64,000 nucleotides of DNA, taken from Bacteroidota bacterium. GTDB taxonomy: Bacteria > Bacteroidota > Bacteroidia > Bacteroidales > FEN-979. The notes below the pieces were generated by a model, which was not told where the DNA came from, did no database searches, and was given only the letters and a program-made list of their open reading frames with translations. Where the stretch lies: positions 60,214 to 124,213 of the forward strand of contig JAPLDO010000078.1 of the NCBI GenBank assembly GCA_026391715.1, written 5' to 3'. Position 1 is the first letter of the stretch. Every line of letters starts with the position of its first letter. The translations under genes were made by a program, and so were the position numbers. Shown one piece after another: positions 1 to 60,425 of this stretch.

Positions 1-3000
1 CTTTCCCCACTTGCGTATCCAACTGAGTTTTGATGCTCGTATTGAAATTTTTATCTTTTGCTCTCATTCCATGATAGGCGAGGTTGGCATATTCCGAAAC
101 CATATTGTTGATTTCAACCATTTCAAACTCGCCGGTTCGCCCTCTCGAATGTTGCAACATCCCCTTTACAATGCTTTCGGCTCTTTTGCCATGTTCATTT
201 ATTTTCGTGACATTCCCTTTGATCATTCCAATTACTTCATCAATATCGGCATATTTTTCAGGAGTGAGAACGTCTTTCAGACCGGTAATAAAATCAACAA
301 GTTCATCGGCAAGATCGGCGGAAAGGGATGAGAAATTATTGACGAAATTCAGGGGATTTTGAATTTCATGGGCAATACCGGCGATAAGTTCGCCCAAAGA
401 GGCAAGTTTTTCCGACTGAACCAACTGATCCTGGGTGTCCTTGAGATTTTGCAGCGTTTGTTGAAGGTTTTCGAGTATTCTGGTGCGAATGAAGGCAGAA
501 ATAATATGCTCCTTTGAATTTTTGATAAAGCTGACGTCTTTCGGTTCAAATGCATTTTCGCGGTTCAGGTTTTCAAAAATCAGGAAAGCCTCCACCTTAT
601 TTTCAACCCTGATTACCAAAATTACCATTGACTTTGGTTTTGTCAGAGCATTTAATTCCGGGATATCATCAAACGAGGAAAATTCGGTTTTTATAAAAAT
701 ATCTTCAAAAATTTCCTCCGCATTCTTCAGGTAACAGTTTTCTGCCTGATTCAGGGAAAGTGTAATATTATAGAGTTGTTGATTACTCCAACCAAAGCTG
801 GCTTTGAATTTACAGGCGTCTAATTTTTTATCATAAACCAGCGCCGAAGATTTTTCGGCAGAGCGAATTACCTTCATTTTTTCGAGCAATGACTGGAGAA
901 GGTTCTCAAAGTTTATTTCAACATTGATTGATTTTACGGCTGTATTTATTTTCTCAAGCTCGTCGTTTTTATCGCTGAGTTCTTCCGATTGTTTTTCGAT
1001 CTCCTCCTTTTGCTGAACAACTTCAGCGGTACGCGCGGCAATTCGCTGTTCGAGTACCCGCTTTTCTTTCATCAGTTGACGGTTGCGGTAAATCATTATG
1101 ACATATATCAAACCGCCGGCAAGGAGAGCATACATAAGGTACGCCCAGAATGTAGTAAACCATGGCGAAAGTATGCGGAAACTCACATCGGCTTCGGCGG
1201 AAATTATTCCATAAATATTGCGCGATTTAACCCGAAATTGGAAATCTCCCTTTGGAAGGTTTGTGTATTCCTTGTGCGACTGGGTTGTCCAATCCGACCA
1301 GGTTTCCTCAAAGCCTTCGAGGATGTACTGGTACTGGTTCTCGCCCATTGCAGCATAATATGGCGAGCTAAATTCAAAACGCAGAGAGTTATCGCTGTAG
1401 TGCAAAACAATGTTTCTGCGGCTCAAAATGGTATCGCCTGAGCCTTCATTACCTGAATAGATTACCGAATCGTTTCGGATTATTATCTTGCGAATAAGCG
1501 TAGGCGAAGGATCGAGATTCACTTTTTTCACTAACGGGTTATACCTTATTAGTCCGTCGGGACCGCCAAACCAGGCAATTCCATTGTTTTCGGGATAAAT
1601 AGCCCAGATAACATAATCGGAAATGGATAAAAAAGGAGTACTTAATGGTTTGTACCGGGCGCCACTTTTTACCAAAAGCATTACATCGGTTTCATCGCCA
1701 TTATTAACCCACAGATTTCCAGTTGATGTTGGCGTTATTATTGAAAACCATTGTTCGTTTCCTGGCGCCTGTCCGGGACACAAAGTTATCGGGTCAAATG
1801 AATGTGTCGCTTCGTTAAACACGAAAACTCCCTTTCGGGTCGAAACGCTCATCTGCTGTCCGATCGGGTTAATCGAACTTCCAATATCATCGGGCAAACC
1901 ATTTTTCTGAGTATAAAACACAGGTGAGCGATCTCCCGGCGCATACCGAAATACGCCTTTGGATAAGGTTGAACCCCAGATGTTTCCATAACCATCAGGT
2001 TGCAGGTCGGTGATTTCCACTTCCGGTCCTTCAAATTTTTCGAATTGCCACCGTCCATTTTGCTTTTTTAAACTGAAAAAACCGCGCATCTCGCCAATAA
2101 ATATCGAAGAAGGATCTTTTTGCGAACGCACAATTGACATGGCAAAGCCCTCCTTAATAATGGTTGCTTTTTTATTTATTACCTGAAAAATTCCCTGAGA
2201 AGTAGCTGCCAGTAAACCGTTTTCGTAAGGAATAGTACACCAGCACGCCGTGATTATATCCTGAATAGGCAGAAATCCGAAAGCCGTTTCATCGTAATAA
2301 TATAATCCCTGGTAGGTGGAGATATAAAGAGTATTATCAATCCTGATGATATTGTTCACAGCCCCGTTCAGCCCCGATTGTTCATCAAAGAAAGTGAGGG
2401 GAGAAGGGATTTCAACCATCACAATGCCATTGTTTAAGGCAGCCCATAGAATATTCTTGTCGTCGGTAAAAAGGTCCTGGACAAACTCATTCCGTATCGA
2501 GGCTTTTTTGTCAATGATTTGTTTGATGGAGCCGTCGCTGTTGATGATGATAATTCCCCGCTGCGACGTTCCTATGGCATAAGAGCCGTCGGCTAAAATT
2601 TCGCCGGTGGTGACAAGGCTTTTCATCAAAAGATTGTCAGAGCTGGCGACAAAATTTTTGATCCCTTCGGAGTCAAAAAGGTATAAACCTTGCGTTCCGG
2701 TGATTATCAGAATACGCCCATCCGGATAAGGTAGCATTGCTTTAATTTCAATAGCGTCGGAAAACAGATTGCCATCTGGCGCGGCGGCGACTTGCCCATT
2801 GTTATACGAGCATAAGCCTTTATCTTTTAATTGCAGATACAGGGTTTTATTTACGTAAAACGCGTTTGTAATTTCATTTGGCGATTGCCAAGGTTTAAGT
2901 TTTCCGTCATCCAGAACAAGTATCATGTTTCTGGTTACAAAATATATTACTCCGGCAGCGGGAAAAATTTGTAAAACATCTGAAAACGAAGGATTTGAAG

Positions 3001-3373
3001 AGTCGGCGGAATTTAAAAGACTTTTAAAATACATCCTTCCGTTATCATCCGATTCAAGAGAGCCGATTTCACTTCTTGCCCCCACATAGATTTTTCCTGC
3101 CGAATCGGTTGCCAGGGCTGAAACCTTGGTAGTTTTTTCAGTTGGAATCAGCCGCCAGAATTCTCCGTCATATTGGAGTACGCCGGCAAAGTTGCCAAAA
3201 TAGATCATTCCGCGTCGGTCGCTCGTAATTGCAAAATTCTGGGCGTGAGCCTTGTATTCAAAGGGAGCAAAATTTTTTAAAAACGGAAATCCGGGTTCAT
3301 TATCAGTGAGTGATTGCCCACTGATTATTCCCTGGATAAAAAGTAGCAGGAAGGTAATGACCAATTTATTCAT
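1..3373 (-). CDS. Sensor histidine kinase with periplasmic beta-propeller / Y_Y_Y-type domain (3' end cut by window edge)
   Basis: Absent from the supplied ORF track because it has no stop inside the window. Manual reverse translation from ATG at 3373-3371 (ATGA overlap with the upstream stop at 3370-3372) stays open to position 1. It reads: MNKLVITFLLLFIQGIISGQS signal; repeated propeller-like segments; LRFEFSSPYYAAMGENQYQYILEGFEETWSDW...FQFRVKSRN (Y_Y_Y-like); TM FWAYLMYALLAGGLIYVIMIY; coiled coil; H-box LGELIAGIAHEIQNPLNF. The ATPase domain lies beyond the window. Confidence 0.8.
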   Translation of the reverse strand, partial: MNKLVITFLLLFIQGIISGQSLTDNEPGFPFLKNFAPFEYKAHAQNFAITSDRRGMIYFGNFAGVLQYDGEFWRLIPTEKTTKVSALATDSAGKIYVGARSEIGSLESDDNGRMYFKSLLNSADSSNPSFSDVLQIFPAAGVIYFVTRNMILVLDDGKLKPWQSPNEITNAFYVNKTLYLQLKDKGLCSYNNGQVAAAPDGNLFSDAIEIKAMLPYPDGRILIITGTQGLYLFDSEGIKNFVASSDNLLMKSLVTTGEILADGSYAIGTSQRGIIIINSDGSIKQIIDKKASIRNEFVQDLFTDDKNILWAALNNGIVMVEIPSPLTFFDEQSGLNGAVNNIIRIDNTLYISTYQGLYYYDETAFGFLPIQDIITACWCTIPYENGLLAATSQGIFQVINKKATIIKEGFAMSIVRSQKDPSSIFIGEMRGFFSLKKQNGRWQFEKFEGPEVEITDLQPDGYGNIWGSTLSKGVFRYAPGDRSPVFYTQKNGLPDDIGSSINPIGQQMSVSTRKGVFVFNEATHSFDPITLCPGQAPGNEQWFSIITPTSTGNLWVNNGDETDVMLLVKSGARYKPLSTPFLSISDYVIWAIYPENNGIAWFGGPDGLIRYNPLVKKVNLDPSPTLIRKIIIRNDSVIYSGNEGSGDTILSRRNIVLHYSDNSLRFEFSSPYYAAMGENQYQYILEGFEETWSDWTTQSHKEYTNLPKGDFQFRVKSRNIYGIISAEADVSFRILSPWFTTFWAYLMYALLAGGLIYVIMIYRNRQLMKEKRVLEQRIAARTAEVVQQKEEIEKQSEELSDKNDELEKINTAVKSINVEINFENLLQSLLEKMKVIRSAEKSSALVYDKKLDACKFKASFGWSNQQLYNITLSLNQAENCYLKNAEEIFEDIFIKTEFSSFDDIPELNALTKPKSMVILVIRVENKVEAFLIFENLNRENAFEPKDVSFIKNSKEHIISAFIRTRILENLQQTLQNLKDTQDQLVQSEKLASLGELIAGIAHEIQNPLNFVNNFSSLSADLADELVDFITGLKDVLTPEKYADIDEVIGMIKGNVTKINEHGKRAESIVKGMLQHSRGRTGEFEMVEINNMVSEYANLAYHGMRAKDKNFNTSIKTQLDTQVGK

Positions 3374-6300
3374 ACTCCTTCATTTTGACATTGTTTTTTG
3401 AAAATCCTGAAATATCTTTCGGCAAATACAACATCGCCTGTCATTAATTCATAAAGACGCTCGCGCGGTATCGAAATTGTAAATCCATCGTCGAAACTAA
3501 CTGAAAATGTATCTGCGGGTTTATCAGTGGCTGAACCGGCAGCCTGATCGGTATTTGCTGCATCCTCAAGGTTTATCAGAAGATGTGTGATTTCGTTTTC
3601 AGGCAGAGTTGAGAACAGCTCGGTATTTTTCAGCAATACAACTTTTTGGAATATCAGCTTGTCAGATTTCCGCTCGAAGGATTTGATTTTTTCTACGATA
3701 CCGGTTATTTTTTCCCTGTCTTTTTTATCAAACCTGATCATTGTATCAAAATAGTAGCCGCGGTTCCGGTTAAAAAGTCCCCAGGCGGCAAGTTCGCCAA
3801 GCAGGGGGTCGGAATTAACGAGGTTGGCTGCCAGCAATTCTTCTGTGAGATTATTATCGGGCATTTCAGCGCAAAGGGCGGAGATAGCGCATGCTTTGGT
3901 CCACCGGTTTGAATATGAATAGCCTTTGTTGACGATATCATGCAGCCGTTCTTCGATGTTCATTTTTTCTTGCGGAAAACGCAGGCTGAACCGGCTTAAC
4001 CTCTCGTGAACCGGTAAATCTTCGAAGATCGGAAAAAACAACTCCTTAATCTCATCTGAAATCATCATATCTCCGATTTCAAGCGCGTAAATCTTTGCGT
4101 TGATATCAGTACTTTCAATATTTTCGCGGATATGCCTGATTGTTTTTGAATCATAGAGCAGCGAAAGCAAAAGGAAAACATGTTCCTTTTTTTCTTCCAG
4201 CTCCTGTAGCAGCGCTAATTGCAGATCGCCGGCATTTTTAGAGCCGGCAATATCATTCAGCGATGCAAGAATCCATAAAATGTTTTCTGCCGATTCTTCA
4301 ATGGCGTCTTTGATAAGGGAAATTTCCAACGCCGACGCATGGTACTCTAAGTTGCTCAGCGCTAATAAAACCCGGTAACGTATATCTTTATCTGGATGGT
4401 TTATTTTGTCGCGAAGGAATTTAATGGATTTGGCGCTTCCGATGGATTCATAAATGCTGATGATTTTAAGTTGCGGCGCTTTGTGACCGCTTATTTTTTC
4501 AAACAAGCGGTCAACGTCGGCAAGAATTGGTTCGCCAATTTTTTTTATGGCAATTGCCGCTGAATTGGAGAACTCCGGCACAATCAGCAGCTCGATGATA
4601 TAAGTCCACAACTCATATCTTTTGATTTTTCCGCAGGATAGAATAGCCGCTTTTATAATCTCCGGATCAGGGTCTTTTAGCAAATTGACGAGTAGCTTGA
4701 AAGTGGCGTACCTGCCCGATGAACCGAGAAGACGGGCAGCACTGAGCCGCTCGCCGGCATGGTTTGAGCCGGCAAGCTCCTTCATAAGTTCAAAAGTATA
4801 ATCCTCGGCAGTTTTTAACGATAAGATGGTTTCTTCAATAAGGAGGTTCATTTCGGGCGCTTCAGACCGATTTTTAATCCTCAAAAGAAAAGGCAGGGTG
4901 GCGACGAGTTGTTTTTCTCTGATTTTTTTTAAAATGGCATCTTTTACAGGAAACGCGGCAAGGTGGTATGTGGCTTCAAGAATTTTTTCAACCATTCCCG
5001 GCTCCGCTTTTTCCAATATTTCATAATTGCGTTGAAACTGCTCAAAGTTCGAATCGGAAAGTATCTTACCATACATGACGACAATTGAGTCGCGCTCTTC
5101 GGGTTCGGAACTTTTAAGTTCGCTCAACTTAGTTTTAATCATCTTTCGGTATTCATCATACATTTTAAATGCGACCCAAATCCACAGTCCAAGTACCACA
5201 ATAAATATCCAGGTGTAATGAACAAGCGTGATGAACGGAAAGATGGAAAATATTAAGATTACAGCGCCTGTGATGACAGTTCCAGAGGCTTTTGGAATAC
5301 CTTCGATTTGATTTTGAAAAGGGAGACGCTGTTCGGTGGGAACAGGTTGGTACAACAACTGAAACGCCGGTTCGTAAAAAGCTCCCCGGATTGATCTTTC
5401 AAAAAGGCGGGCAAGGGCAATAAAGGAGAAAAACATGCCTATCGGACCATAGAGAGCTCCGAATCCCGCCGCCAGAATGACGCTGAAAATAAGAATGATT
5501 GGCAATGACAGTAAACTGGGACGGAGTCCGTATTTATTGAGAAACCTTCCTGATACCAGCTTTAACAGAATCTCAAAGAATGCCAGGGAACCCAGGAAAA
5601 TTGCGAGGAACCGGGCAATGTCCTGCGGATTGTTTGCAAATTCAACCTTGGTTTGTGCGAGGAATAAAAAATCAACGAACAAGTATCCAAATATAGGAAG
5701 CAGCGCCATCAGGGAAATTATTCGGAAATAGGGTTTTTTCAGGAGATTCCAGTAATTCCAATCCGATTGGGATGATTTATCAACCTTTACGGCATTAACT
5801 ATTACGGATTTAAGCTGATCTTTAAATGTTGCGAAAATGATCAACACCATTACAAGGCAGATTAACAGAAATAATGAAGCCAGGAAGAGCAGGCTGGGAG
5901 TGTTGAGAAATTTCAGAATCAGCGGTATTGAAAGATAGCCTGTCATGTAAGAAACAACCTCGCCAATGCTGATCAATGCGAAAATTCTTTTTCCCTGCCT
6001 TACATTGAAAAGCCTGCCTGCAACCCCCCAGAAATTGACCAGGAGGATGTAAACCATTACCCTCACCCAGGTGTACATGATAAATGTTATCCAGCTTGAA
6101 TTAAAGGCATAAACGCCAATACTGATTGCGAGAACGCTAAGAAAAACAAAAAGGAATTTAATGACAACCTGGTAGTATAAACTCAATTTTTTATCGAGAT
6201 GTGAAAACATCCACCAAGCCACATAGATGATTATACCTGAAGCAATAAACGATACCGGTATCATTTTGGGCTTGAAATGCTTAAGAAAAATAGCATTGGA

Positions 6301-6423
6301 GGCGGTAAAATAAAAGGAGATGGACATTCCGATAAAAAACGAAAACACCATCAACATGAGTACAGGTTTATACTCCTCGCTGCGGATATTCAGTATTTTC
6401 GTTAACCACGATCTCTGTCTCAT
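3370..6423 (-). CDS. TLC/Npt-like (ATP/ADP-translocase-type) polytopic membrane domain fused to HEAT/ARM-like repeats and a C-terminal cyclic-nucleotide-binding-like region
   Basis: ORF 3370..6486. I prefer the ATG at 6423 (MRQRSWLTKILNIRSEEYKPVLMLMVF...), which leaves a 10-nt gap to the upstream stop instead of a 53-nt overlap. The first ~450 aa contain about 11-12 hydrophobic helices. The middle has repeated helical units (AARLLGSSGRY..LLKDPDPEIIKAAILSCGKI, DKDIRYRVLLALSNL) typical of HEAT repeats. The tail (LLKNTELFSTLPENEITHLLINL...) is cNMP-binding-like but degenerate. Confidence 0.7.
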   Translation of the reverse strand: MRQRSWLTKILNIRSEEYKPVLMLMVFSFFIGMSISFYFTASNAIFLKHFKPKMIPVSFIASGIIIYVAWWMFSHLDKKLSLYYQVVIKFLFVFLSVLAISIGVYAFNSSWITFIMYTWVRVMVYILLVNFWGVAGRLFNVRQGKRIFALISIGEVVSYMTGYLSIPLILKFLNTPSLLFLASLFLLICLVMVLIIFATFKDQLKSVIVNAVKVDKSSQSDWNYWNLLKKPYFRIISLMALLPIFGYLFVDFLFLAQTKVEFANNPQDIARFLAIFLGSLAFFEILLKLVSGRFLNKYGLRPSLLSLPIILIFSVILAAGFGALYGPIGMFFSFIALARLFERSIRGAFYEPAFQLLYQPVPTEQRLPFQNQIEGIPKASGTVITGAVILIFSIFPFITLVHYTWIFIVVLGLWIWVAFKMYDEYRKMIKTKLSELKSSEPEERDSIVVMYGKILSDSNFEQFQRNYEILEKAEPGMVEKILEATYHLAAFPVKDAILKKIREKQLVATLPFLLRIKNRSEAPEMNLLIEETILSLKTAEDYTFELMKELAGSNHAGERLSAARLLGSSGRYATFKLLVNLLKDPDPEIIKAAILSCGKIKRYELWTYIIELLIVPEFSNSAAIAIKKIGEPILADVDRLFEKISGHKAPQLKIISIYESIGSAKSIKFLRDKINHPDKDIRYRVLLALSNLEYHASALEISLIKDAIEESAENILWILASLNDIAGSKNAGDLQLALLQELEEKKEHVFLLLSLLYDSKTIRHIRENIESTDINAKIYALEIGDMMISDEIKELFFPIFEDLPVHERLSRFSLRFPQEKMNIEERLHDIVNKGYSYSNRWTKACAISALCAEMPDNNLTEELLAANLVNSDPLLGELAAWGLFNRNRGYYFDTMIRFDKKDREKITGIVEKIKSFERKSDKLIFQKVVLLKNTELFSTLPENEITHLLINLEDAANTDQAAGSATDKPADTFSVSFDDGFTISIPRERLYELMTGDVVFAERYFRIFKKQCQNEGV

Positions 6424-6433
6424 GCAAATGCTG

Positions 6434-7312
6434 TCATTTTGTAAGGAAGTGATGGTCGGGAACTTTGTACATTTCGCTACGGTCATCCGTTGCTGGTTTC
6501 AGCAGTAATTGTTTGATCTCTTCCGGGAGTTCAGCGCTGAAGTCAATCTGCGGAACATGCCCACTTTGACCGCCGGCTTTCCGGGCGATGATTTCAGAGA
6601 TCAGTTTTACTCCCATCCAGGCGCTCACGCTCGTGATCTTTTCGAACATTGTTACCACGCTCTTCGGATATGTTCCATCTTCGAGGCAAATGTTTATTGG
6701 CGTTGAAATACCTGTAATGGGACCAATGTCAATAAGTTCCGTAATCTTATGAATTGTAAAGATGGAGGTTTTCAAACCTTTTCTGATTGCCTCATGAAAA
6801 GGTTGCGGACCTATCCCGATATGTTTCGGGAGGTCGGAAGGATGAAAATTATAAGCTCCCATTGCCGGGAAATCAAAGAGAAAAGAATCAAGCTTTTGTC
6901 CGAAAACTAACATAAACAAGACCTCCGGATTCCAGGATTTGTAAATGTTCCTATAATAATCAGTTTTTACCGACCCGGTATAGCAAGGAACGCCAAGGTT
7001 CATGCAGGAATTGATGACTTTGCTTCTTAGCTCTCTTCTCTCCTCATCATCGTATTCGTTCCATACCCTCCTTTTCATCGTTATCCGGGCGTTCGGATTC
7101 ACAGAATCATCAGTGGCAACGCCAATTATATTGAGATGCTCCGGATACCTCTTCTCATAAAGAGCAAGAGCGTTTAAAAGATTATTTCCACCATTGCAAC
7201 TTACAAATAGTACGAGTCTGATACCTTTTCCCTGATTCAGTTTCGGCTTGACCGGCAAAAACAGGTCTCCCCACAGGGATTCAGGATTAGTGATTTTTTT
7301 GTATTCTTTCAT
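6434..7312 (-). CDS. Formyltransferase-family protein
   Basis: 292-aa ORF. The core AYNFHPSDLPKHIGIGPQPFHEAIRKGLKTSIFTIHKITELIDIGPI matches the N-x-H ... D catalytic pattern of the Fmt/PurN formyltransferase fold (N.H.S.LP..RG...G.T.H.....D.G.I). No Fmt C-terminal tRNA-binding domain was recognised. Confidence 0.6.
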   Translation of the reverse strand: MKEYKKITNPESLWGDLFLPVKPKLNQGKGIRLVLFVSCNGGNNLLNALALYEKRYPEHLNIIGVATDDSVNPNARITMKRRVWNEYDDEERRELRSKVINSCMNLGVPCYTGSVKTDYYRNIYKSWNPEVLFMLVFGQKLDSFLFDFPAMGAYNFHPSDLPKHIGIGPQPFHEAIRKGLKTSIFTIHKITELIDIGPITGISTPINICLEDGTYPKSVVTMFEKITSVSAWMGVKLISEIIARKAGGQSGHVPQIDFSAELPEEIKQLLLKPATDDRSEMYKVPDHHFLTK

Positions 7313-7325
7313 TAATAGCGAGTAA

Positions 7326-9923
7326 TTAAAGGTCGTAGGCTAATGTGACCAACAGATGTCTTCCCCGCTGGAGAATGCCGGTAGGACTGTTGACGCCATC
7401 CGCTGCTTTGGTGCCGGGATCAAAATAGGTTGAATTAAGGATGTTGTTGCACACCAACTGAAGGGCAAGTCCTGGAACGATTTTGTTATTTGAATAGGTG
7501 ATTGCCCCATTCAGAATGGCAGTAGAGGGGAAAACACCCGTATTCAATGGCACCGTAGTCCCCTCGCCTGTAATCCGATTTCCGACAAAATTCAGCCGGA
7601 GGTTAATGTTCAATTGATTAAAGAATTCTTTATTAGCGCCAATATTGAACTGATGACTTGAAATATCTCCTACTCTGTTATCAACCTCCCCGGTTTCGGA
7701 ATATATTTGTTTGGGATCGCAGAAGGTATAATTGAAATATGCAGAAAAAGATTCAACCTGATATATGGCATTTGCCTGTATTCCCATGATTCTGAATTTT
7801 CCGATATTCTGATTCTGGATTAATCCCGAACTCCCCACCTTTACGGTTCCAACTACATTGTCAATAAAGTCGTAGTACATCTCCATATCTGCATGGAATG
7901 CCTTGTTCAGTCGAAATCCTGCGCACAACTCAAGGTTTTGTATGTTTTCGGTTTTCAGAGTCGGATTTCCAATCCGGTTCGCCACAACAGAATATTTTGT
8001 CCAGTTCGATACATTCATAATCCCGCTGGAGTAAATGGCTTTGAATGTAAACTTTCCGGGGGAATAAACCAGGGCAAGGCGCGGGCTGACTTTGCTGCCA
8101 AATCCATCGTTGGTACGCACAAGGTTAAAGTCGTAACGAAGTCCGAATGTGATTTTGAAGTTCCGAAAAGCCTGGAAAGTTCCCTGCGAATAGGCTCCTA
8201 AATCCCAGACATTGTACTCATTGCCACCTTTTGGCGAAGGAATGATTACAGCCGAATCTTCCGGCGTTGCAGTCAGGCTGGAATAATATTGTCCCTGCAA
8301 TGTACTGTTACGCACTTCAAATCCTGAAACCAAATCAAACCTCGAAACCGGACGGTATATGACCTTGAATTCTGTACGAAGTTGTTTAGACAGCTCATAC
8401 ATGTAGGTTGTGATCCAGTCAGGGGTTTTGTTTTTGACGAGGTCGGCTAATTTTTTATTTCCGCGGGCATAATTGGATACTGTTACAAAGGTAAAATCAT
8501 CGCTTACCGCATGAATACGATAGGTAGTAACGTTAGAGAAGAAGACTTTTTCACTGATCTGGTTTTCATATTTTGCGAAAAAATAGGACAGTTGAGGGAT
8601 CCAGCTAAATCCGTTGTCGGAACCGGCAACATAAGTGTCAATAAACTGGGTGAGACCACCCCGCCAGTATTTCCAGGTTTGAAAACCAACTGTGAAATTT
8701 CCGATTTTAAGTTTTCCATTCAGCAGCCAGCTTTTGGTTTCATTGGAGAAGCCGATCTTATGTCCTTTTACAATCTGATCATAGCCGGATTTATCCAGGT
8801 TTCGGGCTGTTTCGGCGCCCAATGGCGTCAGTGAAAGCTGGCTTGAATCGGCAGAGACGGTGTAATAAGGATTGCTAAAAGGAAGTTTGTTGGCTATCAG
8901 ATATTGTTTGGCGCCGGCAGACATATCGAGCAGCTTATTATAGTTTACGCCGTTATAGACATCGGGGTTATAATCAAAAAAACTCTGACTCGAAATATCC
9001 ATTTCATCGGAATGGTAAAATCGCCCTGTCACCGTAAAGGCGATATTGCGCTTCTTTCCTGAGACGCTCAGATCCACTGTCTGCGTATTATAGGTTCCAT
9101 AATTTACGCTGGCGCTGATACCAATGCTTTTTCCGGGTTTTATAGCATCTGCCGAATTTCTCGTGATTACGTTGATTACTCCCGCGAAGGCATTCGGTCC
9201 GTACATGGTAGAGGCGGGACCATATATGATTTCAACCCGTTCAATATTCGATAAAGGGTATTGACGATCAATATAAGCCCAGTTGGTCCATAAATCGTTT
9301 TCCTCGATCCCGTCAATAAGCAAAAGGGTTTTTTCTGTGTTGTTTTGCCGGAATCCCCGTTGATAAACGTTGGTATATTCAGGTCCATAAAACATTGTAA
9401 GATCGAATCCCGGCACATCTTTCAAAAGTTCAATAAGGTCGTTATATCCGCGGTTTTCAATATCTTTACGGGTGACAATAATGATAGTGGCAGCCGCTTC
9501 ATAAATATTTTCTTCCTTTTTTGAAACCGATGTTACTACCTGAACGCCTCCCGCTAATTTCTGGCTGTTTACCAACCTGATAAAAGTGGGAGGATCAAAA
9601 AGGTTTGCTTCATAAGTGGGGTTGATCTGAAGGAGATAATTTATTTCAACGGCAGCCTTCAACGACGAATCAATTGCAAGATAACTCATTGCGAGTAACC
9701 GGTAAGCCTCTACCTTTTGTTTTTCATTAAAACCTTTCTGAATACAATGATTCAGCGATTGGAAAACATCCGAAAACTTGCCAAGATCATACGACTTTCG
9801 GGCGTCGTTAAGGGTAACATCGCTGCATATCTGGCTTTTCACAGCCAATGGAATCATTGAAACGCTGATAGAAAAAACCAGAATCAGCATGGTCAGGATT
9901 CGATGGAAGATTTTTATATACAT
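7326..9923 (-). CDS. TonB-dependent receptor-like outer-membrane protein with N-terminal TPR-like extension
   Basis: 865 aa with a signal-like N-terminus. A ~120-aa helical region (KVEAYRLLAMSYLAIDSSLKAAVEINYLLQINPTY) precedes the plug. Plug motifs: IIIVTRKDIENRGYNDLIELLKDVPGF, LLLIDGIEEND, IERVEIIYGPASTMYGPNAFAGVINVIT. A long beta-barrel with aromatic-rich alternating strands follows. Confidence 0.85.
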   Translation of the reverse strand: MYIKIFHRILTMLILVFSISVSMIPLAVKSQICSDVTLNDARKSYDLGKFSDVFQSLNHCIQKGFNEKQKVEAYRLLAMSYLAIDSSLKAAVEINYLLQINPTYEANLFDPPTFIRLVNSQKLAGGVQVVTSVSKKEENIYEAAATIIIVTRKDIENRGYNDLIELLKDVPGFDLTMFYGPEYTNVYQRGFRQNNTEKTLLLIDGIEENDLWTNWAYIDRQYPLSNIERVEIIYGPASTMYGPNAFAGVINVITRNSADAIKPGKSIGISASVNYGTYNTQTVDLSVSGKKRNIAFTVTGRFYHSDEMDISSQSFFDYNPDVYNGVNYNKLLDMSAGAKQYLIANKLPFSNPYYTVSADSSQLSLTPLGAETARNLDKSGYDQIVKGHKIGFSNETKSWLLNGKLKIGNFTVGFQTWKYWRGGLTQFIDTYVAGSDNGFSWIPQLSYFFAKYENQISEKVFFSNVTTYRIHAVSDDFTFVTVSNYARGNKKLADLVKNKTPDWITTYMYELSKQLRTEFKVIYRPVSRFDLVSGFEVRNSTLQGQYYSSLTATPEDSAVIIPSPKGGNEYNVWDLGAYSQGTFQAFRNFKITFGLRYDFNLVRTNDGFGSKVSPRLALVYSPGKFTFKAIYSSGIMNVSNWTKYSVVANRIGNPTLKTENIQNLELCAGFRLNKAFHADMEMYYDFIDNVVGTVKVGSSGLIQNQNIGKFRIMGIQANAIYQVESFSAYFNYTFCDPKQIYSETGEVDNRVGDISSHQFNIGANKEFFNQLNINLRLNFVGNRITGEGTTVPLNTGVFPSTAILNGAITYSNNKIVPGLALQLVCNNILNSTYFDPGTKAADGVNSPTGILQRGRHLLVTLAYDL

Positions 9924-9953
9924 AGATATTGTTGTTAATTTCCTGCTGAAAGT

Positions 9954-12900
9954 CTAAGGTAAATCAGAGCGCGTTTTCTGGTACGGAATATCCTCTCCAA
10001 CCAGTTTATGCCATTCCTCGATAGTCATATTCCGTTTCAGCGTCATTTTCAATTTTTCAGCCATATCGCCGTTTTCAGTGGAAAATATTCTGATGGTTTT
10101 ATCGGCGCTGCTTGAGATAATATGTTTGTTGTCGGGAGTGTAAATAATATCATAAACCCACAGGTCATTTTTATCAATTGAAATTGGTTTTACTTCGAGG
10201 GATGGAAATCCTGCAATTTTAATTGACCAGTCAAAACTACAGGAAGCAAGTTCATCGTCCATAGCTTTGAATGTTAATCCGGTAACGCCCGAAACATGCC
10301 GTCCAATGATTTCATGTGGTGCGCTGCCGGGCATTGCAGGGTTGCATATTTGTATTGATCCGTCAGAACATCCTGCTGCAAGCGCTTTTCCATTATTGGC
10401 GTAAGCGAGAGATAAAACAGGGCTGTTAAAAGTGAAACGAATGGCAGGGGAGCTGATATAACCATTGATTCCTATAATTTTTACAATGCCGGAGATGGTT
10501 CCGTAAGCAATGTTTTTGCCATCGGGACTGAATGCAAGGCAATGTATGGTTACGGCGTTGGAATCGAGCAGTTGTTTTGTAAAAGTCCCATTGTTGTATC
10601 TCCACAGAAAAAGAAGCCCGTCGGAACCGCATGATGCAAACTGCTCAAGCGATGGGTGGATAGCGATGCCGTTGATTATCGAACTATGACCGGTTAATGC
10701 CGAAGGCAAAGGTTTGCCAGTATTCCGGTTCCAAAGCAGCAGTTTGCCGCTGACTGTACCGCAAATCACCCATTGTTCGTCATGCGAAATGCCTATTGCC
10801 CGCAAAGGTTCGTTTTCATGTTTCATCAGTTCGATCCTCACTGGCGCCAATAAAGGATTATCCAAATCCCACATCAGAGCTTTCCCATCATCGCTGCACG
10901 AAAACAGAGATTTCCCATTTTTCGTAATGGCAATAGCGCGAACGGCATCCTCGTGACCACGCATTACTGTTTCATCTTTCGAAATTGCCGATAATGAGTA
11001 ATAGATTGCCGGATCGGTATCAATTCCGCCATTTGCAGCATTTAATTCGAAGGCAGTCACAGCAAGTAAAGCCGGAAGGTCATCTTTTACCGTGTTAAAC
11101 AACTGACCTGCCTGAATTGCCATTGACCGTGAGATGGCGAGCAGCCTGAGCCGCTGTGTTTTCTTTTCAGATTCTTCGGCTTTGATACGTTCTTTATCGG
11201 CAATTTGTTTTTGTGTTACAGCCTCTTTTCGTTGCGATTGCGCCTCATCTCTTGCAACGAGGGCTTCCTTTTTCGACTGGTCGGCTTGCTTTCGCTGGTC
11301 AACGGCGACTGTGGTTTGCTCCTGCGCAATAATCTGTTGTTTCACGGCATATTGCCGCTGTTGCTCAGTGATCATCTCCTGTTGTTCGGCGATTTGCTGC
11401 TGTTGTTCTGAAATTTTTTTCTGCAGGATAGCCTCTTTGCGCTGCTCTTCGGTTCGTTTTGATTCAGAAACAGCCAGCTTTTCTTTCTCCAGCGCCTCTT
11501 TCCTACTGGCTTCCGCTTTAAATCGCAGGTTAAGGGAAATGATGAGAAACAGGATTGAAATAATGGAGGCGAACCCAAGAATGATAGCCGAATTGCGCGC
11601 CGTTTTCAGGTTTCGTTTCTGTTGTTTGTCTTTTTTTGATAATTCGAATTCGTGTTGTTTTTTACTGTAATCGAGGAAGGTCATTGCCCGGTCAAATGCC
11701 GGGTCGTAACGCATAGCCCAGGTTGCGTTTGGTTTCGATTGATCTTTCCATTGCAGAGCCAGTTGAAGTTCGGGATTGACCCACAAACCTGTTTTTCCGT
11801 CCTGGTATAGTTCAGCCGATTTGGAAAGTCGGAGGTAAAGTTGAGCTGCCTGGCTCTCTTCTTCAACCCATTTATTTAACCGTATCCAAATCCGCATAAT
11901 ACTCTCATGCGAAATATCAATTGTTGAATCGGCATTGAGCGCAACCTGCGATGAAGGCATCAGAAAAGCGCAACCCGATTTTCTGAAACTATCAATAATC
12001 CGAATCATCTCCTCCTCCCGCGCATTGGCGAGAGTGCATATTTCGCTGAGTTGAGTAGGTCGTCGGGTTCCGCGGCTCTCTTTGGTGATGTCGGTAAGCG
12101 CTTTAAATAATTTTTCGGCGATGGATTTGTTTTTATGGTCTTTCAATTCGGCATAAATCTCTTCGAGATGAACCGAAAGCGCTTCCTTCATTGTGCCAAT
12201 CGCAGTGTAATGTTCCATTCCTATTGGCTGATTTCCAGCCCGGTTCATTATCCAGAAGTTATATGTCCTCATCAAAGCGTGCTGCATGATTGGAAGCTGG
12301 TCGGGGTCGTCGCCAACATCATCAAGCAACCGTTGAACTAGCTCTTCGGAAATTGTCCCGCCATTTCCGGTAATGGGACCTGTTATCGCCAGTCGGCGTT
12401 CCGTGTTGTTCATTCTCGGCACGAGATAATAGCCTTTATTGATCAACTCGCTCAGTCCTCTGAATTCGGTACATTCATCGAGGAAATCGGTGCGCATTGA
12501 AATGACGACATAAATTGGAATTTCAGATTGAGAAACTGCTGTAATAATTAATTCAATAAAGGCTGAAGATTCAAGAATTGTATGAAAGGACGTCCTGCTT
12601 TTTTTAAACCTGAATAACTCTTCAAACTGGTCAATAACAATCAGGTTTGCCTGCCCCGGTAAATTCGATTTCTGTAAAACGCTGATAAGTCCGTCTGTCC
12701 CTTTTCTTAATTCAGTTGCCAGAGTTTCTGCTGATGCTTGGGCGTCGGCGAGGGCGTTGGCAAGGTTTCCAATCGGGTCGTCGGCAGGACGGAAAATGGT
12801 CAGTTTCCACGATGTGGGAAGATTCCCGGAGGTATTTTTCAGCAACGTTGGAATTAGTCCCGCTTTTATGAGCGATGATTTTCCACATCCGGAAGAGCCG

Positions 12901-13043
12901 ACAATAGCGAGAAACCGGGTTTCCGATAATTTGCCGATTAGTTCTCCCACCTGAAATTCCCTGCCAAAGAACAGATGGTCTTCGTTAATTTCATAACTCC
13001 GGATACCTGGAAATGGATTTTCGTGAAGAAGTAGTGGCGTCAT
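9954..13043 (-). CDS. STAND-class P-loop NTPase - TM helix - Q/E/K-rich coiled coil - WD40 propeller protein
   Basis: ORF 9954..13139. I prefer the ATG at 13043 (MTPLLLHENPFPGIRSYEINEDHLFFGRE...) because a TAATTTTG -7 box lies at 13078-13071, inside the longer ORF. Walker A FLAIVGSSGCGKSSLIKAG; Walker B LIVIDQFEELF; TM SAIILGFASIISILFLIISL (about 11527-11594); ~130-aa EQQRK-rich coil. At least 6 WD40-like blades follow (GHEDAVRAIAITKNGKSLFSCSDDGKALMWDL, etc.). Confidence 0.85.
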   Translation of the reverse strand: MTPLLLHENPFPGIRSYEINEDHLFFGREFQVGELIGKLSETRFLAIVGSSGCGKSSLIKAGLIPTLLKNTSGNLPTSWKLTIFRPADDPIGNLANALADAQASAETLATELRKGTDGLISVLQKSNLPGQANLIVIDQFEELFRFKKSRTSFHTILESSAFIELIITAVSQSEIPIYVVISMRTDFLDECTEFRGLSELINKGYYLVPRMNNTERRLAITGPITGNGGTISEELVQRLLDDVGDDPDQLPIMQHALMRTYNFWIMNRAGNQPIGMEHYTAIGTMKEALSVHLEEIYAELKDHKNKSIAEKLFKALTDITKESRGTRRPTQLSEICTLANAREEEMIRIIDSFRKSGCAFLMPSSQVALNADSTIDISHESIMRIWIRLNKWVEEESQAAQLYLRLSKSAELYQDGKTGLWVNPELQLALQWKDQSKPNATWAMRYDPAFDRAMTFLDYSKKQHEFELSKKDKQQKRNLKTARNSAIILGFASIISILFLIISLNLRFKAEASRKEALEKEKLAVSESKRTEEQRKEAILQKKISEQQQQIAEQQEMITEQQRQYAVKQQIIAQEQTTVAVDQRKQADQSKKEALVARDEAQSQRKEAVTQKQIADKERIKAEESEKKTQRLRLLAISRSMAIQAGQLFNTVKDDLPALLAVTAFELNAANGGIDTDPAIYYSLSAISKDETVMRGHEDAVRAIAITKNGKSLFSCSDDGKALMWDLDNPLLAPVRIELMKHENEPLRAIGISHDEQWVICGTVSGKLLLWNRNTGKPLPSALTGHSSIINGIAIHPSLEQFASCGSDGLLFLWRYNNGTFTKQLLDSNAVTIHCLAFSPDGKNIAYGTISGIVKIIGINGYISSPAIRFTFNSPVLSLAYANNGKALAAGCSDGSIQICNPAMPGSAPHEIIGRHVSGVTGLTFKAMDDELASCSFDWSIKIAGFPSLEVKPISIDKNDLWVYDIIYTPDNKHIISSSADKTIRIFSTENGDMAEKLKMTLKRNMTIEEWHKLVGEDIPYQKTRSDLP

Positions 13044-13070
13044 GGATGGATTAAGAAATTGATTATGTAA

Positions 13071-13078
13071 CAAAATTA
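13071..13078 (-). promoter_or_regulatory. Candidate Bacteroidota -7 promoter box (TAATTTTG on minus strand)
   Basis: Plus-strand caaaatta equals minus-strand TAATTTTG and matches the TAnnTTTG consensus. It lies 28 nt upstream of the ATG at 13043. No clear -33 TTTG partner was seen. Confidence 0.4.
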
Positions 13079-13252
13079 TTATAATCAGTGGTATTAATGG
13101 TTTTTTTTTTGCATTTGCAATATTTTGCTCTGGAGCCAAAAGATCAACAAATGTTTGACTGAAATTTTATTACAGCAGAACATGGACACAATGGAAAATC
13201 AGGACGAATCAGCATTTAGCGACCAATTGCGTGAAAGAAACATTCAGAATGT

Positions 13253-13307
13253 GAAATCTGAAATCTGAAATCTGAAATCTGAAATCTGAAATCTGAAATC
13301 TGAAATT
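13253..13307. repeat. Heptanucleotide tandem repeat (GAAATCT)x7 plus a partial copy
   Basis: Read directly: perfect units start at 13253, 13260, 13267, 13274, 13281, 13288 and 13295, then partial gaaatt. Intergenic, about 210-265 nt upstream of the STAND gene start. Confidence 0.95.
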
Positions 13308-13407
13308 ACCTTCCCTCCCAGAAATTCATATTGATCCCTTTTATTAGTGTGCTGATATTAAAACCGCGACAAAGTAGTTTGCGGTCGGGACGGGAGCGAT
13401 GACATTG

Positions 13408-14445
13408 TTATTCAGGCCACCCGGTTTTAATTGTTCCATTTTTTATACCGGATGAAATTCCGTCCATTGCCGATTTAATACTATCGGGAATAAGCGCTTC
13501 AAAATTATGAAACGGAGCAATGCTCACACCGCCATTGCTCAGATTACCGTGCATAACTTTTCCGCCAGGAAAATAAAAATTGTAATATCCGTTCATTGTA
13601 TTATAAACCATTACATCAAGCGCTTTCATGCACGAAGTCAGCAAAACCGGACCAACCGCCGGGATTGAATAAAATTGATCAACATCAACGCCAATAGCCC
13701 ATTTTCCGGCTTCCTTAACCTTATATAATGCGCCGTTCCCGGTTTTTCCGGCGCAGGCAAAAATCACCGAAGCATTTTTTTTCAACAGGCTGTCAGCCAA
13801 CCTTGCGCCTTGAAGCGTATCGGAAAAGGAGGTGGCAAAAGCCCCAATTGTTTTCACATTCTTTTTATAAAGATTGTTAAAGTATGTCACCCCATTTGTG
13901 TAACTCACGGTAAATTGCCTGATTTCAGGAATATCAGCGCCTCCGACAAAGCCGGTAACCGGGTTTGAGGAGTTTTGCCTGTATACCCAGTAAGCCGCGA
14001 GAAATCCACAGGGAAACGAGCTCTGATCAACATCGAAAACGGCACAAAGTAAATTTGGAGGCGGCGACGCCATTGAATAATCAATTATCATAAAATCAGT
14101 TCCCGGATTCGCTGCGGCTGCATCAATGGTAGCCTGCGCTGCGCCGAAGCTAACCGTTATTATCAAGTCAAATCTATTTGACAGGAAATAGTTGATTCCA
14201 GAAGAATAATCAGCGGCTGTTTTACATTCATAAGACTGGCATGCCATTGGAAAATCCCTGGCAGCCCGCTGAAATCCTGCTAAAATATTTTGGTTGAACC
14301 CGGCGTCTGAAAACCCTCCCAAACCGCTTACAAGTCCAATTTTCATAACCAGTTGCGGTTCCGGATTAGAATTTTTCAAACATGATGATAAAATAAATGC
14401 AAGCGCCAATATGATGCAGCTTGATACAAAAGAATTTTTTTTCAT
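13408..14445 (-). CDS. BMP-family (PnrA/Med-like) substrate-binding lipoprotein
   Basis: 345 aa. Lipoprotein signal MKKNSFVSSCIILALAFILSSC. IGLVSGLGGFSDAGFNQNILAGFQRAARDF and later ...IFACAGKTGNGALYKVKEAGKWAIGVDVDQ are typical of basic-membrane-protein-type nucleoside/sugar binding proteins. Confidence 0.75.
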   Translation of the reverse strand: MKKNSFVSSCIILALAFILSSCLKNSNPEPQLVMKIGLVSGLGGFSDAGFNQNILAGFQRAARDFPMACQSYECKTAADYSSGINYFLSNRFDLIITVSFGAAQATIDAAAANPGTDFMIIDYSMASPPPNLLCAVFDVDQSSFPCGFLAAYWVYRQNSSNPVTGFVGGADIPEIRQFTVSYTNGVTYFNNLYKKNVKTIGAFATSFSDTLQGARLADSLLKKNASVIFACAGKTGNGALYKVKEAGKWAIGVDVDQFYSIPAVGPVLLTSCMKALDVMVYNTMNGYYNFYFPGGKVMHGNLSNGGVSIAPFHNFEALIPDSIKSAMDGISSGIKNGTIKTGWPE

Positions 14446-14492
14446 AACTTCCAGTATTTAACTCCTGTGGAGTTGGTTATTTCACTATTTTG

Positions 14493-15800
14493 CTATTTAA
14501 TAATTTTTCCACTCAACAATAACAACTCCGTCTCTGTCAGTTTCGCCTTAAATTCAGCGGTGATAAGTCTGGCGCCTGCATCGAGCAGATCATGCTGCAC
14601 CTCTCTTAACTGCAATGACGATATTGAGCCGATCGAGTAACCTTCACGGGCAATGTCCATATTTCTTGCGGCAAGTTGGAGGTTTTCCTGTTCAAATCCA
14701 ACCATCTCCAGTTGATTCCCGTAATCGTTATAAATGCGGGTAAGATATGCTTCGAGTCTGTTTTCCAGTTGTTTTATCTCAATTTCGCTGGTTTGCAGGG
14801 AAATGGCTGCATTTTTATATTGCCTTCGCAGATTAAGCCCGTCAAACAGTTTCATGCTTAATAAAATTCCGAATGAAGGACCAAAGTTCCGGTTGTATTG
14901 AATGAAATTTGCCTCAGTTTCGGAACGTAAATAGTTGTAATTGGCATAGAAATCGAGTGTCGGAAACTGGTCGGCGCGCGCCGCTTTTAATTCCAACTGC
15001 CCAACCTGCCTGTTTCTCGCAGCAAGGATGAGGTTTCTGTTGGCAGTTTTCATTGATTGGCGAAGCGAATCATACTGCAATTTTCCGGAAACCACAATTG
15101 TATCTTTAACTTCAAACTGCGTATTGACGTCTCTCGACAACAGGTCGTTCAGAGTGGTTTTTGAATTTTCAAATACTGTTTTTTGATTGGATAAAGCGGC
15201 AACATCGGCATTAAGCTCCACTCTCGCTTTCAGGTATTCCATCTCCGAACCGGTTCCTGTTTCAAACCGCATCTTTGCAAGTTCAAGCCGGAATTCGGAA
15301 ATTTCAACCTGCTCTGCAAAAATCCGATGAACCCTTTCCTGCCGGATAATATCATAATAATTCCCGATGATCTTTGCCACCGTATTCTCAATGGTAATCT
15401 TCGCGCTCAATTCGCTCATCTCTTCAAGTTTCTTTAATTTATTCCAGGCGATGAACATTTTCATCCCGTCGAATACAGTCCACGTAAGACCAACTCCGGC
15501 GGTAATATTTTCGGAATGAGCGCTTGAATTATCGAGTTCAGATCCGGCTACAACTTTAACTTTTGCATCGCTCAGTCCATTAACATAGCCGGCATTAACG
15601 CTGATTGCTGGTAACATTCCGGCGTTTCCGGGGGAGACGTTGTTTTGTGATATATTCAGCGAATTTTGCGCTATTACGATTTCATAGTTATTTATGAGTC
15701 CAATAGCAACGGCTTTATCGAGGGTTAAAACCTCCTGCCCATTCATCTGGAAGGCGAAAAGCAGCAAAAACAATCCGGTAATCTGTAACGTTTTCATCAA
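14493..15800 (-). CDS. TolC-family outer-membrane efflux protein
   Basis: 435 aa with a signal peptide. Two-fold repeated coiled-coil/beta pattern (LTLDKAVAIGLINNYEI...; LLDAGARLITAEFKAKLTETELLLLSG). 4-nt overlap with the upstream RND gene. Confidence 0.85.
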   Translation of the reverse strand: MMKTLQITGLFLLLFAFQMNGQEVLTLDKAVAIGLINNYEIVIAQNSLNISQNNVSPGNAGMLPAISVNAGYVNGLSDAKVKVVAGSELDNSSAHSENITAGVGLTWTVFDGMKMFIAWNKLKKLEEMSELSAKITIENTVAKIIGNYYDIIRQERVHRIFAEQVEISEFRLELAKMRFETGTGSEMEYLKARVELNADVAALSNQKTVFENSKTTLNDLLSRDVNTQFEVKDTIVVSGKLQYDSLRQSMKTANRNLILAARNRQVGQLELKAARADQFPTLDFYANYNYLRSETEANFIQYNRNFGPSFGILLSMKLFDGLNLRRQYKNAAISLQTSEIEIKQLENRLEAYLTRIYNDYGNQLEMVGFEQENLQLAARNMDIAREGYSIGSISSLQLREVQHDLLDAGARLITAEFKAKLTETELLLLSGKIIK

Positions 15801-18910: not shown

Positions 18911-18911
18911 G

Positions 18912-19967: not shown

Positions 19968-20010
19968 CCTTTTGTATTTAGAATTTTGAGTTCACTCTGA
20001 AAACTCTTTT

Positions 20011-60106: not shown

Positions 60107-60132
60107 AATAAATCTTTTGTATTATAATAATT

Positions 60133-60372
60133 TCATCCCTTTTTCTTTTGAAAAGGCATTTCGCCGTTCATCGCCTGTTTATCGCTTTCAGTTACGAATT
60201 GAGACTGATTGACAATCATCCGGTGATAAAACGGATAAATCTCTCTGAATGTTTCATCCGACAGGTGAGTTTTAAATATTTCCACCCACTGATCGGGTTT
60301 TGCCGGGAAGTAAGTGAGTTGAAAGCTATGCAACCGGTATGCCATCATGCAGTCCTCTCTTTTTCCATTCAT
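60133..60372 (-). CDS. Hypothetical small ORF (possibly a decayed gene remnant)
   Basis: 79-aa ORF (or 70 aa from the MMAYRL start) in a ~320-nt gap between two kinase genes. No recognisable motif. An adjacent out-of-frame ORF (60326..60520) overlaps the kinase 3' end. Confidence 0.25.
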   Translation of the reverse strand: MNGKREDCMMAYRLHSFQLTYFPAKPDQWVEIFKTHLSDETFREIYPFYHRMIVNQSQFVTESDKQAMNGEMPFQKKKG

Positions 60373-60425
60373 CGGTTAATTCTTTTCGTATTTCAATGCT
60401 TTTCAGGCGTTGGTTTATCCAGTTT

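Follow-up and report, generated by a model that had tools for sequence, protein, structure and literature searches.

Five tightly packed genes, all on the minus strand in the left part of a 64,000-nt stretch of contig JAPLDO010000078.1 (hereafter the window) from a Bacteroidota bacterium, raise the question of what a STAND NTPase, a TonB-dependent receptor, a formyltransferase-fold protein, a nucleotide-transporter-like protein and a sensor kinase could be doing together. A preliminary description of this DNA did not recognise the combination as a pathway, and we likewise found no paper in the literature that describes it. Comparison across genomes and metagenomes indicates that the five genes belong to a conserved six-gene cassette. 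For this cassette we tentatively favour, with a probability of about 0.4, a role as a Bacteroidales-restricted, envelope-spanning uptake device that is coupled to signalling and has a partner switch as its output.

Conservation and organisation of the cassette

Gene calls were made from the listing of open reading frames (ORFs) and their translations. In the direction of transcription, the genes encode an nSTAND1 NTPase with a transmembrane helix, a coiled coil and WD40 repeats (g1, 9954-13043, 1029 aa), a TonB-dependent receptor (g2, 7326-9923, 865 aa), a formyltransferase-fold protein (g3, 6434-7312, 292 aa), a protein with an NTT-type membrane domain and a HEAT solenoid (g4, 3370-6423, 1017 aa) and a sensor histidine kinase (g5, 1-3373, 1124 codons, truncated by the window edge). 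The starts chosen for g1 (ATG at 13043) and g4 (ATG at 6423) fit the lengths and N-termini of their orthologs. The domains assigned in the preliminary description were right for all five proteins as judged by Pfam and NCBIfam, profile and fold searches. The ORF listing also bore out its co-directional arrangement, with spacers of 30, 13, 10 and -4 nt (g1/g2, g2/g3, g3/g4 and g4/g5).

Around g3 homologs at 58%, 48% and 45% identity, three gene tables gave the same gene order and unrelated flanks. A scan of one genome per GTDB species, in which the six genes were placed by tblastn, yielded 42 Bacteroidota loci, and a metagenome scan added 25 cassette loci; individual loci are referred to below by L numbers. 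The order g1 to g6 was kept in every sufficiently long locus of both sets: nSTAND1-WD40 protein, receptor, formyltransferase-like protein, HEAT protein, Y_Y_Y kinase and then g6, a protein of ~200 aa whose gene lies downstream of the kinase gene and, here, beyond the left edge of the window. The preliminary description had thus placed g1 to g5 correctly and missed the sixth gene; its proposal to examine neighbourhood conservation is answered by homologs that co-occur in one order and are not scattered. g1 and g2 are adjacent in every locus, the identity of g3 among cassette loci goes down to 39%, a g4 homolog at 37% identity lies in the identical arrangement, and the flanking genes vary from locus to locus.

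The distribution of the cassette is narrow. Homologs of g3 formed 53 clusters in an index of 5.8 billion proteins, all from Bacteroidales or Bacteroidota metagenome-assembled genomes (MAGs), and the MAG labels of cassette hosts are Bacteroidales, Prolixibacteraceae, Lentimicrobiaceae, Porphyromonadaceae and Draconibacterium. Stratified lakes, groundwater and peat were the sources of these MAGs. An exact-sequence look-up returned no record for the window's g2 and g4, and found g3 only on a 2.5-kb contig. The cassette proteins are 45-86% identical across family-level divergence, and the single complete chromosome among the loci (L020) carries one copy. Collectively, these comparisons identify the cassette, as far as its sequences tell, as a six-gene operon restricted to Bacteroidales whose genes are inherited as a block.

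The preliminary description had proposed one transcript, which is supported by the conserved order and by spacers of at most 62 nt in four other loci with gene calls. The cluster is one conserved, tightly spaced unit and is very probably transcribed as such. g1 is preceded by a 364-nt intergenic region, in which a candidate Bacteroidetes-type -7 box, TAATTTTG (13071-13078, minus strand), lies 27 nt upstream of the g1 start codon. The box is present as reported earlier but is not the only copy: six other minus-strand copies of the TANNTTTG motif fall within the cluster genes, and the window as a whole shows no enrichment of the motif (44 observed vs 56 expected). Its location in the intergenic region is the sole argument for the box and makes it suggestive. 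No internal terminator hairpin had been noticed earlier, and this holds for the spacers, in which a consensus scan found none; the four minus-strand sites that it did find are weak and all lie within ORFs. An Rfam scan of positions 1-14500 at E<=1 gave a single sub-threshold match, inside g2, and no riboswitch upstream of g1. An intergenic 7-nt tandem repeat, AATCTGA (13248-13306, 8.4 copies, 98% matches), is situated ~200-260 nt ahead of the g1 start, and a change in its copy number could alter the promoter context.

The membrane-split STAND protein and the receptor module

g1 matches the nSTAND1 family (PF20703) over the full length of the model (positions 1-374 of 379; score 299.6 bits, cut-off 27.1; E 7e-89) with both nucleotide-binding motifs intact, namely Walker A (GSSGCGKSS) and Walker B (DQFEE), the latter invariant in orthologs. 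The protein has exactly one hydrophobic helix (aa 486-504), and seven of the 16 residues before it are Lys or Arg. The helix leads into a coiled coil (aa 505-630; helix and coil together at 11154-11588, minus strand), and a WD40 β-propeller follows (aa 690-1010; 10014-10976, minus strand), as identified by Pfam WD40 and β-propeller matches. Since the NTPase must be cytoplasmic and the helix is single, the coiled coil and the propeller are predicted to be periplasmic. The likely periplasmic location of the propeller is a point that the preliminary description had missed. By our estimate, ~125 coiled-coil residues would span roughly 19 nm, which is of the order of the width of the periplasm. In 37 orthologs, no indels occur between aa 150 and 720, and Ile, Ala and Gln are invariant at heptad spacing in the coiled coil (aa 544-622). 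The block at aa 541-570 reaches the highest conservation in the protein (0.88), and the propeller has the lowest (0.30-0.56). To our knowledge, a membrane helix that separates the ATPase from the WD40 repeats is common among STAND NTPases, and the topology and partners of such proteins are unexplained.

g2 is the best-conserved protein of the cassette (57-86% identity). It has a signal peptide, a Plug domain (E 2e-19; 70.8 bits against a cut-off of 23.9) and a putative TonB box, and the TonB_dep_Rec_b-barrel domain is recorded for its orthologs, which together make it a TonB-dependent receptor. NCBIfam families of TonB receptors align to aa 130-863, and none of their specific cut-offs is reached. 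A specific identity as a siderophore, haem or B12 receptor was ruled out, as the NCBIfam scores are far below the cut-offs. Across 40 orthologs the protein is nearly indel-free, including the barrel and the receptor loops, and plug residues 201-250 are 96% conserved. This pattern would fit a single conserved ligand.

Ahead of the plug, g2 carries a conserved extension of ~95 aa, a TPR-like module with two invariant cysteines (aa 32-125; 9549-9830, minus strand). Its mean column identity is 68%, and the cysteines are C6 and C33 in the numbering of the alignment. The sequence VTSVSK (9519-9536, minus strand), which is invariant in 28 orthologs and directly precedes Plug, is from its position the likely TonB box. 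Because VTSVSK and then the plug come after the module, the module occupies the position of a FecA-type signalling domain. The cassette shares with FecA-FecR-FecI-type systems, and with SusC-like receptors of Bacteroides that work with anti-sigma factors, a receptor that has an extra periplasmic domain before its TonB box and is encoded beside inner-membrane signalling genes. It differs from them in having a TPR-like two-cysteine module instead of an STN domain, and in its adjacent partners, which are a STAND NTPase with a periplasmic coil and WD40 propeller plus a histidine kinase. A search of the N-terminal 130 aa of g2 gave no STN match even at E<=10, and neither the cassette nor its flanks contain sigma or anti-sigma genes, which sets it apart from FecA-type transducers.

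A stand-alone homolog of the module was recovered by a database profile search (P0331, 187 aa; E 6e-12; hhalign 98.7%, E 2e-16). P0331 keeps both cysteines and carries a signal or anchor at its N-terminus and a membrane helix at its C-terminus. Its gene lies directly after a STAND gene of the type AAA_35-transmembrane helix-coiled coil-WD40, whose product has the same layout as g1 and is 27% identical to g1 aa 558-1029 (E 9e-42). The module and a membrane-split STAND-WD40 protein thus recur as a pair in this second context. It is above all from this recurrence that we argue that g2 and g1 may meet in the periplasm, and it suggests that the g2 module contacts the g1 propeller. The cassette and this second, unrelated locus together nominate a small periplasmic TPR-like module as a partner of membrane-split STAND-WD40 proteins. 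In the P0331 locus (L148 2742-8564; also L149 and L150), the order is Pkinase-TIR-AAA_35, then AAA_35-transmembrane helix-coil-WD40, then P0331, and this three-gene set resembles an undescribed conflict-type system with a periplasmic sensor pair. Two further candidates for stand-alone modules (L151 6774-9366 and L152 339-1843) proved to be receptor genes broken inside the plug, probably sequencing frameshifts or pseudogenes, and were not counted. In L152 the broken receptor comes after a g5-type kinase gene and not after a STAND gene.

Partner-switching genes and the cytoplasmic side

g5 contains Reg_prop, Y_Y_Y and HisKA domains in Pfam and is arranged as a signal anchor and a periplasmic sensor of ~720 aa (aa 23-742), which a transmembrane helix (743-761) joins to the HisKA transmitter. 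At 24.8 bits, the match to HisKA, in which the H-box reads AHEIQNPL, falls just below the cut-off of 26.9, and the last ~115 aa of g5 are beyond the window edge. Full-length orthologs (1230-1246 aa) have a HATPase_c domain and no receiver domain. The cassette has no response regulator (RR) gene of its own; a gene for an RR-SpoIIE phosphatase adjoins about half of the loci. The orthologs of g6 have a signal peptide ending in Gln, a conserved run of aromatic and Gly residues and a C-terminal YxxF, features that point to a small outer-membrane barrel.

We analysed the flanks of the cassette by clustering and tblastn. Genes of the RR-PP2C, STAS and RsbW types lie beside it in about 25 of the 52 loci with usable flanks, a frequent linkage that the preliminary description had missed. 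Two layouts stand out. In the clade of L002, to which the closest relatives of the window (L006-L008) belong, the products of a divergent operon are a soluble kinase of 286 aa, an RR-SpoIIE phosphatase and a STAS protein of 403 aa. The soluble kinase (L002 3280-4140, divergent from g1, with equivalents in ~9 genome loci) shares 52% identity with the g5 transmitter and resembles a duplicate of it feeding the same regulator. In the most divergent clade (L042, L043, L045, L120, L126 and L145), RR-SpoIIE follows g6 on the same strand, and the upstream side carries genes for an RsbW-like kinase, a 111-aa STAS protein and another PP2C phosphatase. RR-SpoIIE also lies beside g1 in L151. The response-regulator phosphatase is the most consistently linked extra gene, and we infer that RR-PP2C is the cognate regulator of g5.

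Oxidoreductase genes adjoin the cassette as well and differ between clades. A zinc alcohol dehydrogenase gene lies 40-70 nt after g6 on the same strand in L002 (18167-19114) and about 17 other loci, an arrangement frequent in the L002 clade, and in another clade a Kv-beta-type aldo-keto reductase gene lies upstream of the cassette (L003 2788-3783).

g3 has the fold and the catalytic residues of the formyltransferase superfamily. Its match to Formyl_trans_N (PF00551) is weak (33.5 bits against a cut-off of 26.1), and N155, H157 and D195 are invariant in 21 homologs. The AlphaFold (AF2) model (pLDDT 87) contains a fold that ends at ~aa 263 and that Foldseek matches about equally well to Fmt, the hydrolase domain of 10-formyl-tetrahydrofolate dehydrogenase (FDH), ArnA, PurN and PurU (E 1e-8 to 1e-6; 3e-8 to Fmt, FDH, ArnA and PurN). 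An HPSDLP segment corresponds to the folate-binding SLLP motif of these enzymes, and we read an S-x-N-x-G loop as standing at the position of the PurN phosphate-binding loop. The protein differs from the same enzymes in missing every curated NCBIfam cut-off (bits/cut-off: fmt 53.7/201.5, PurN 23.9/150, ArnA 34.5/777, PurU 18.9/286) and in carrying its own conserved N- and C-terminal extensions. Neither a Formyl_trans_C domain, the C-terminal tRNA-binding domain of Fmt, nor a signal peptide was found. By these measures g3 appears as a small, distinct subfamily that is equidistant from all characterised branches, and the invariant residues make formyltransferase activity plausible.

The subfamily extends beyond the cassette. 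An exhaustive profile search of 1.84 billion cluster representatives with g3 gave only 71 matches at a threshold of E<=1e-30, a number that rises to 185 at E<=1e-10. Among the matches listed, about 70 are non-cassette relatives with 30-41% identity and the same signature motifs, one of them from cultured Roseibium album (CTQ54898.1). Neighbourhoods of these stand-alone genes were examined in 55 metagenome loci and two genome loci; the context of the genome loci (a Syntrophaceae MAG and a Roseibium MAG) is uninformative taken alone. The top recurrent neighbour, a DUF3147 membrane protein that is absent from the cassette, occurs in 32 of 54 loci; this 266-aa protein is encoded convergently, ~50 nt after the stand-alone gene (e.g. 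L079 8928-9725). Partner-switching genes recur here too: nine loci have either a dCache-HAMP-SpoIIE-HATPase_c_2 protein or separate PP2C and RsbW-like genes, STAS proteins were found in seven and five loci, and an acylating aldehyde-dehydrogenase-like protein in six. In some loci such genes form one co-directional operon with the formyltransferase-like gene last. Stand-alone operons with an RsbW-like kinase, one or two STAS proteins, PP2C and the acylating aldehyde-dehydrogenase-like protein lie at L073 1-3633, L079 8001-13000, L104 2633-6264 and L088 6076-8816. The pairing of a formyltransferase-like protein with an aldehyde dehydrogenase recalls the two catalytic halves of FDH. Fusions within the subfamily join the formyltransferase-like domain to an RsbW-like kinase, a SAM methyltransferase or a P-loop kinase.

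Together, these neighbourhoods suggest that g3 is tied to, and perhaps controlled by, a partner switch. The gene types are those of known partner-switching systems (RsbU/RsbV/RsbW, RssB-type RR-PP2C and SiaABCD): RR-PP2C, STAS and RsbW-like genes are found next to about half of the cassettes, and next to many of the relatives of g3 that stand alone. The cassette differs in having no linked sigma factor, in its recurrent partner, which is a protein of formyltransferase fold, and in that the window itself has none of the genes. We did not find a formyltransferase-fold protein reported in the literature as a component of a partner switch. If the tie is true, the reach of partner switching would widen to include control over a one-carbon enzyme.

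g4 consists of a 12-helix NTT-type membrane domain of MFS fold (aa 1-440) and a HEAT solenoid (aa 446-960). In its AF2 model (pLDDT 82.5), twelve membrane helices are followed by an entirely helical solenoid, which would be cytoplasmic, and then by a C-terminal remnant of two strands. Against the ATP/ADP translocator NTT1 of C. pneumoniae, phmmer gave an E of 1.3e-6 and a profile search 5e-9. The top four Foldseek matches are NTT structures, AtNTT1 (TM-score 0.76) and CpNTT1 being among the top. Many invariant charged residues lie within the helices. In 42 orthologs, Pfam detected HEAT_2 in all 42, MFS_1 in 34, cNMP_binding in two and TLC in one, and because TLC is detected so rarely we regard g4 as a distant NTT branch. 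Nucleotide transport is plausible from the sequence and fold matches to NTT proteins. Because an NTT-type domain is followed by HEAT repeats, and a few orthologs have cNMP_binding, g4 belongs to the NTT-HEAT(-cNBD) family, which Major et al. (2017, PMC5381601) described as widespread and uncharacterised. Cyanobacteria, Chlamydiae, Bacteroidetes and oomycetes are the groups in which NTT-HEAT fusions are widespread, and later literature on the family adds no function. The only genomic partner reported for the family is a cNBD gene (PMC5381601). g4 differs in having its cNBD reduced to a remnant and its gene locked into a six-gene operon. One NTT-HEAT clade is thereby placed in an operon that names candidate partners, for a family that has had no functional lead since its description in 2017.

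Explanations for the cassette and its surroundings in the window

Beyond gene content and topology, we infer each mechanistic step of the uptake device proposed at the outset. g2 would bind and import one conserved ligand, and its TPR-like module, at the FecA-type signalling position, would signal the state of the receptor to the g1 WD40 propeller. This propeller would stand off from the inner membrane on a coiled coil that is rigid and fixed in length, and contact would switch the STAND NTPase in the cytoplasm. In parallel, g5 would sense the periplasm and phosphorylate the response-regulator PP2C phosphatase, which would drive a STAS/RsbW-type partner switch independently of the STAND protein. 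The partner switch and the NTPase would then control the cytoplasmic side, where g4 may carry either the ligand itself or some anionic, nucleotide-like compound through the inner membrane and g3 may formylate or deformylate the compound transported by g4 with a folate cofactor. The preliminary description had proposed an uptake-and-modification module that spans the envelope. Its single unit and its envelope-spanning arrangement stand, and the evidence favours signal-coupled uptake with a partner-switch output over simple import and modification. A more ambitious claim, which we consider doubtful, is that the cassette embodies a new kind of trans-envelope signalling, in which the TPR-like module of a TonB receptor talks directly to a coil-held STAND-WD40 protein and a partner switch targets a formyltransferase-like enzyme and an NTT-HEAT protein rather than a sigma factor. 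Were it true, this reading would give the first functional context for NTT-HEAT proteins, for membrane-split STAND-WD40 proteins and for this formyltransferase subfamily.

Several observations weigh against the uptake device as drawn. g1 lacks an N-terminal effector or adaptor domain, as its nSTAND1 match begins at residue 10, and STAND NTPases normally act through such a domain. The contact between g2 and g1 is argued from what is effectively one other organism, represented by three near-identical contigs, and a profile of the g2 module matched only TPR proteins in the PDB, and those weakly (E 0.2-1.4). Partner-switching genes are missing from the flanks of about half of the loci; in the window there are none in the 51 kb upstream of the cluster, the downstream side being off the window. 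The fusion of an RsbW-like kinase to the formyltransferase-like domain occurs once, on a contig of 2.1 kb, and may be an artefact of gene calling. g6 has no sequence match in Pfam or the PDB, its barrel being read from sequence features only, and all cassette hosts are uncultivated Bacteroidales MAGs from anoxic water, with no cultured isolate among them. Lastly, the other known settings of nSTAND1 are conflict systems (Kaur et al. 2020/2021, PMC8195603; PMC10907252).

The best-surviving alternative is plain nutrient scavenging with modification, which comes near to the main proposal of the preliminary description. On this account g2 and g4 import a large phosphorylated or folate-like cofactor or nucleotide and g3 converts it, g1 and g5 merely regulate expression as in a polysaccharide utilisation locus (PUL), and the receptor does not signal to the STAND protein. 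An outer-membrane receptor, an inner-membrane transporter and a cytoplasmic enzyme encoded in one operon would suit it, as would the strongly conserved receptor loops, which fit one fixed ligand, and the S-x-N-x-G loop of g3 in our reading. The cassette also shares with PULs that have hybrid two-component sensors a TonB-dependent receptor and a Reg_prop/Y_Y_Y kinase in one locus. It departs from them in that the gene after g2 is g3 in all loci, the cassette has no SusD-like lipoprotein gene and no glycoside hydrolase or other hydrolase family, g5 has neither the receiver nor the AraC output that hybrid sensors of PULs carry, and the N-terminus of g2 is not SusC-like. Scavenging would also suit two genes upstream in the window, for a PnrA-like nucleoside-binding protein and for an adenosine deaminase, but they are not conserved neighbours of the cassette, and no riboswitch precedes g1. 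Moreover, scavenging leaves unexplained the N-terminal module of g2 and its recurrence beside another STAND-transmembrane helix-coil-WD40 gene, the invariant periplasmic coiled coil of g1, and the link between the formyltransferase subfamily and partner switching outside the cassette. We consider it unlikely, though deserving of serious attention.

The preliminary description had offered a conflict or sensing system as its other possibility. Sensing is favoured by our analysis and conflict is not. In a conflict reading the cassette would be an abortive-infection system that surveys the envelope: the receptor would act as a sentinel for phage or bacteriocins, g1 would sense intrusion through its propeller, and g4 and g3 would be the effectors, acting for example by leakage of ATP or NAD or by modification of nucleotide pools. 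The nSTAND1 family was described from conflict systems (PMC8195603; PMC10907252), and g1 shares with those NTPases the full-length nSTAND1 domain and C-terminal repeats that presumably act as the sensor. Movement of ATP or NAD is within the capacity of NTT proteins (PMC5381601), the propeller is the most variable part of g1, and the pair of module and STAND-transmembrane helix-coil-WD40 protein elsewhere directly follows a Pkinase-TIR-AAA_35 gene in a conflict-like layout. However, g1 differs from the conflict NTPases in having no effector or effector-associated domain, in the transmembrane helix and conserved coil between NTPase and repeats, and in belonging to a conserved operon of transport and two-component genes; no effector or adaptor domain was recognised in the cassette at all. 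PADLOC gave no significant match for any of the six proteins, the only hits being P-loop-level matches of g1 (E 3e-4 or weaker, ~25 residues). The strict gene order and the 45-86% identity across family-level divergence, together with the single copy in the complete chromosome of L020, also speak against conflict. So do the nearly indel-free receptor loops, which are the opposite of an arms-race surface. The linked genes are of stress-signalling types (histidine kinase, RR-PP2C and STAS), and in the window the cluster sits among housekeeping genes (SufBD, UvrC and an RND pump). Taken together, these points make a conflict system decidedly improbable.

Mere adjacency of unrelated genes packed by chance, for which one could cite the many independent roles of each protein's family, is scarcely credible because the same six genes stand in the same order in about 65 loci with different flanks, and close g3 and g4 homologs from the database search are essentially all inside the cassette.

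The remainder of the window places the cluster beside its housekeeping neighbours and genes for cargo of type IX secretion. Directly upstream of the cluster on the same strand (13408-20943) lie the gene for a nucleoside-binding lipoprotein of Bmp/PnrA type, a TolC-AcrB-MFP efflux operon and the gene for an adenosine deaminase, a nucleoside theme that is suggestive beside the NTT-like g4. A same-strand pair at 57296-61532 encodes two further histidine kinases, a 936-aa receiver-PAS-GAF-HisKA-HATPase hybrid and a 368-aa kinase, both unrelated to g5 beyond the catalytic core. Between these, at 22727-47247, runs a series of type IX secretion cargo genes with Por_Secre_tail domains, which includes genes for a 5254-aa protein of PKD-like and Ig-like repeats (31483-47247) and a 1270-aa protein with an alpha-amylase domain.

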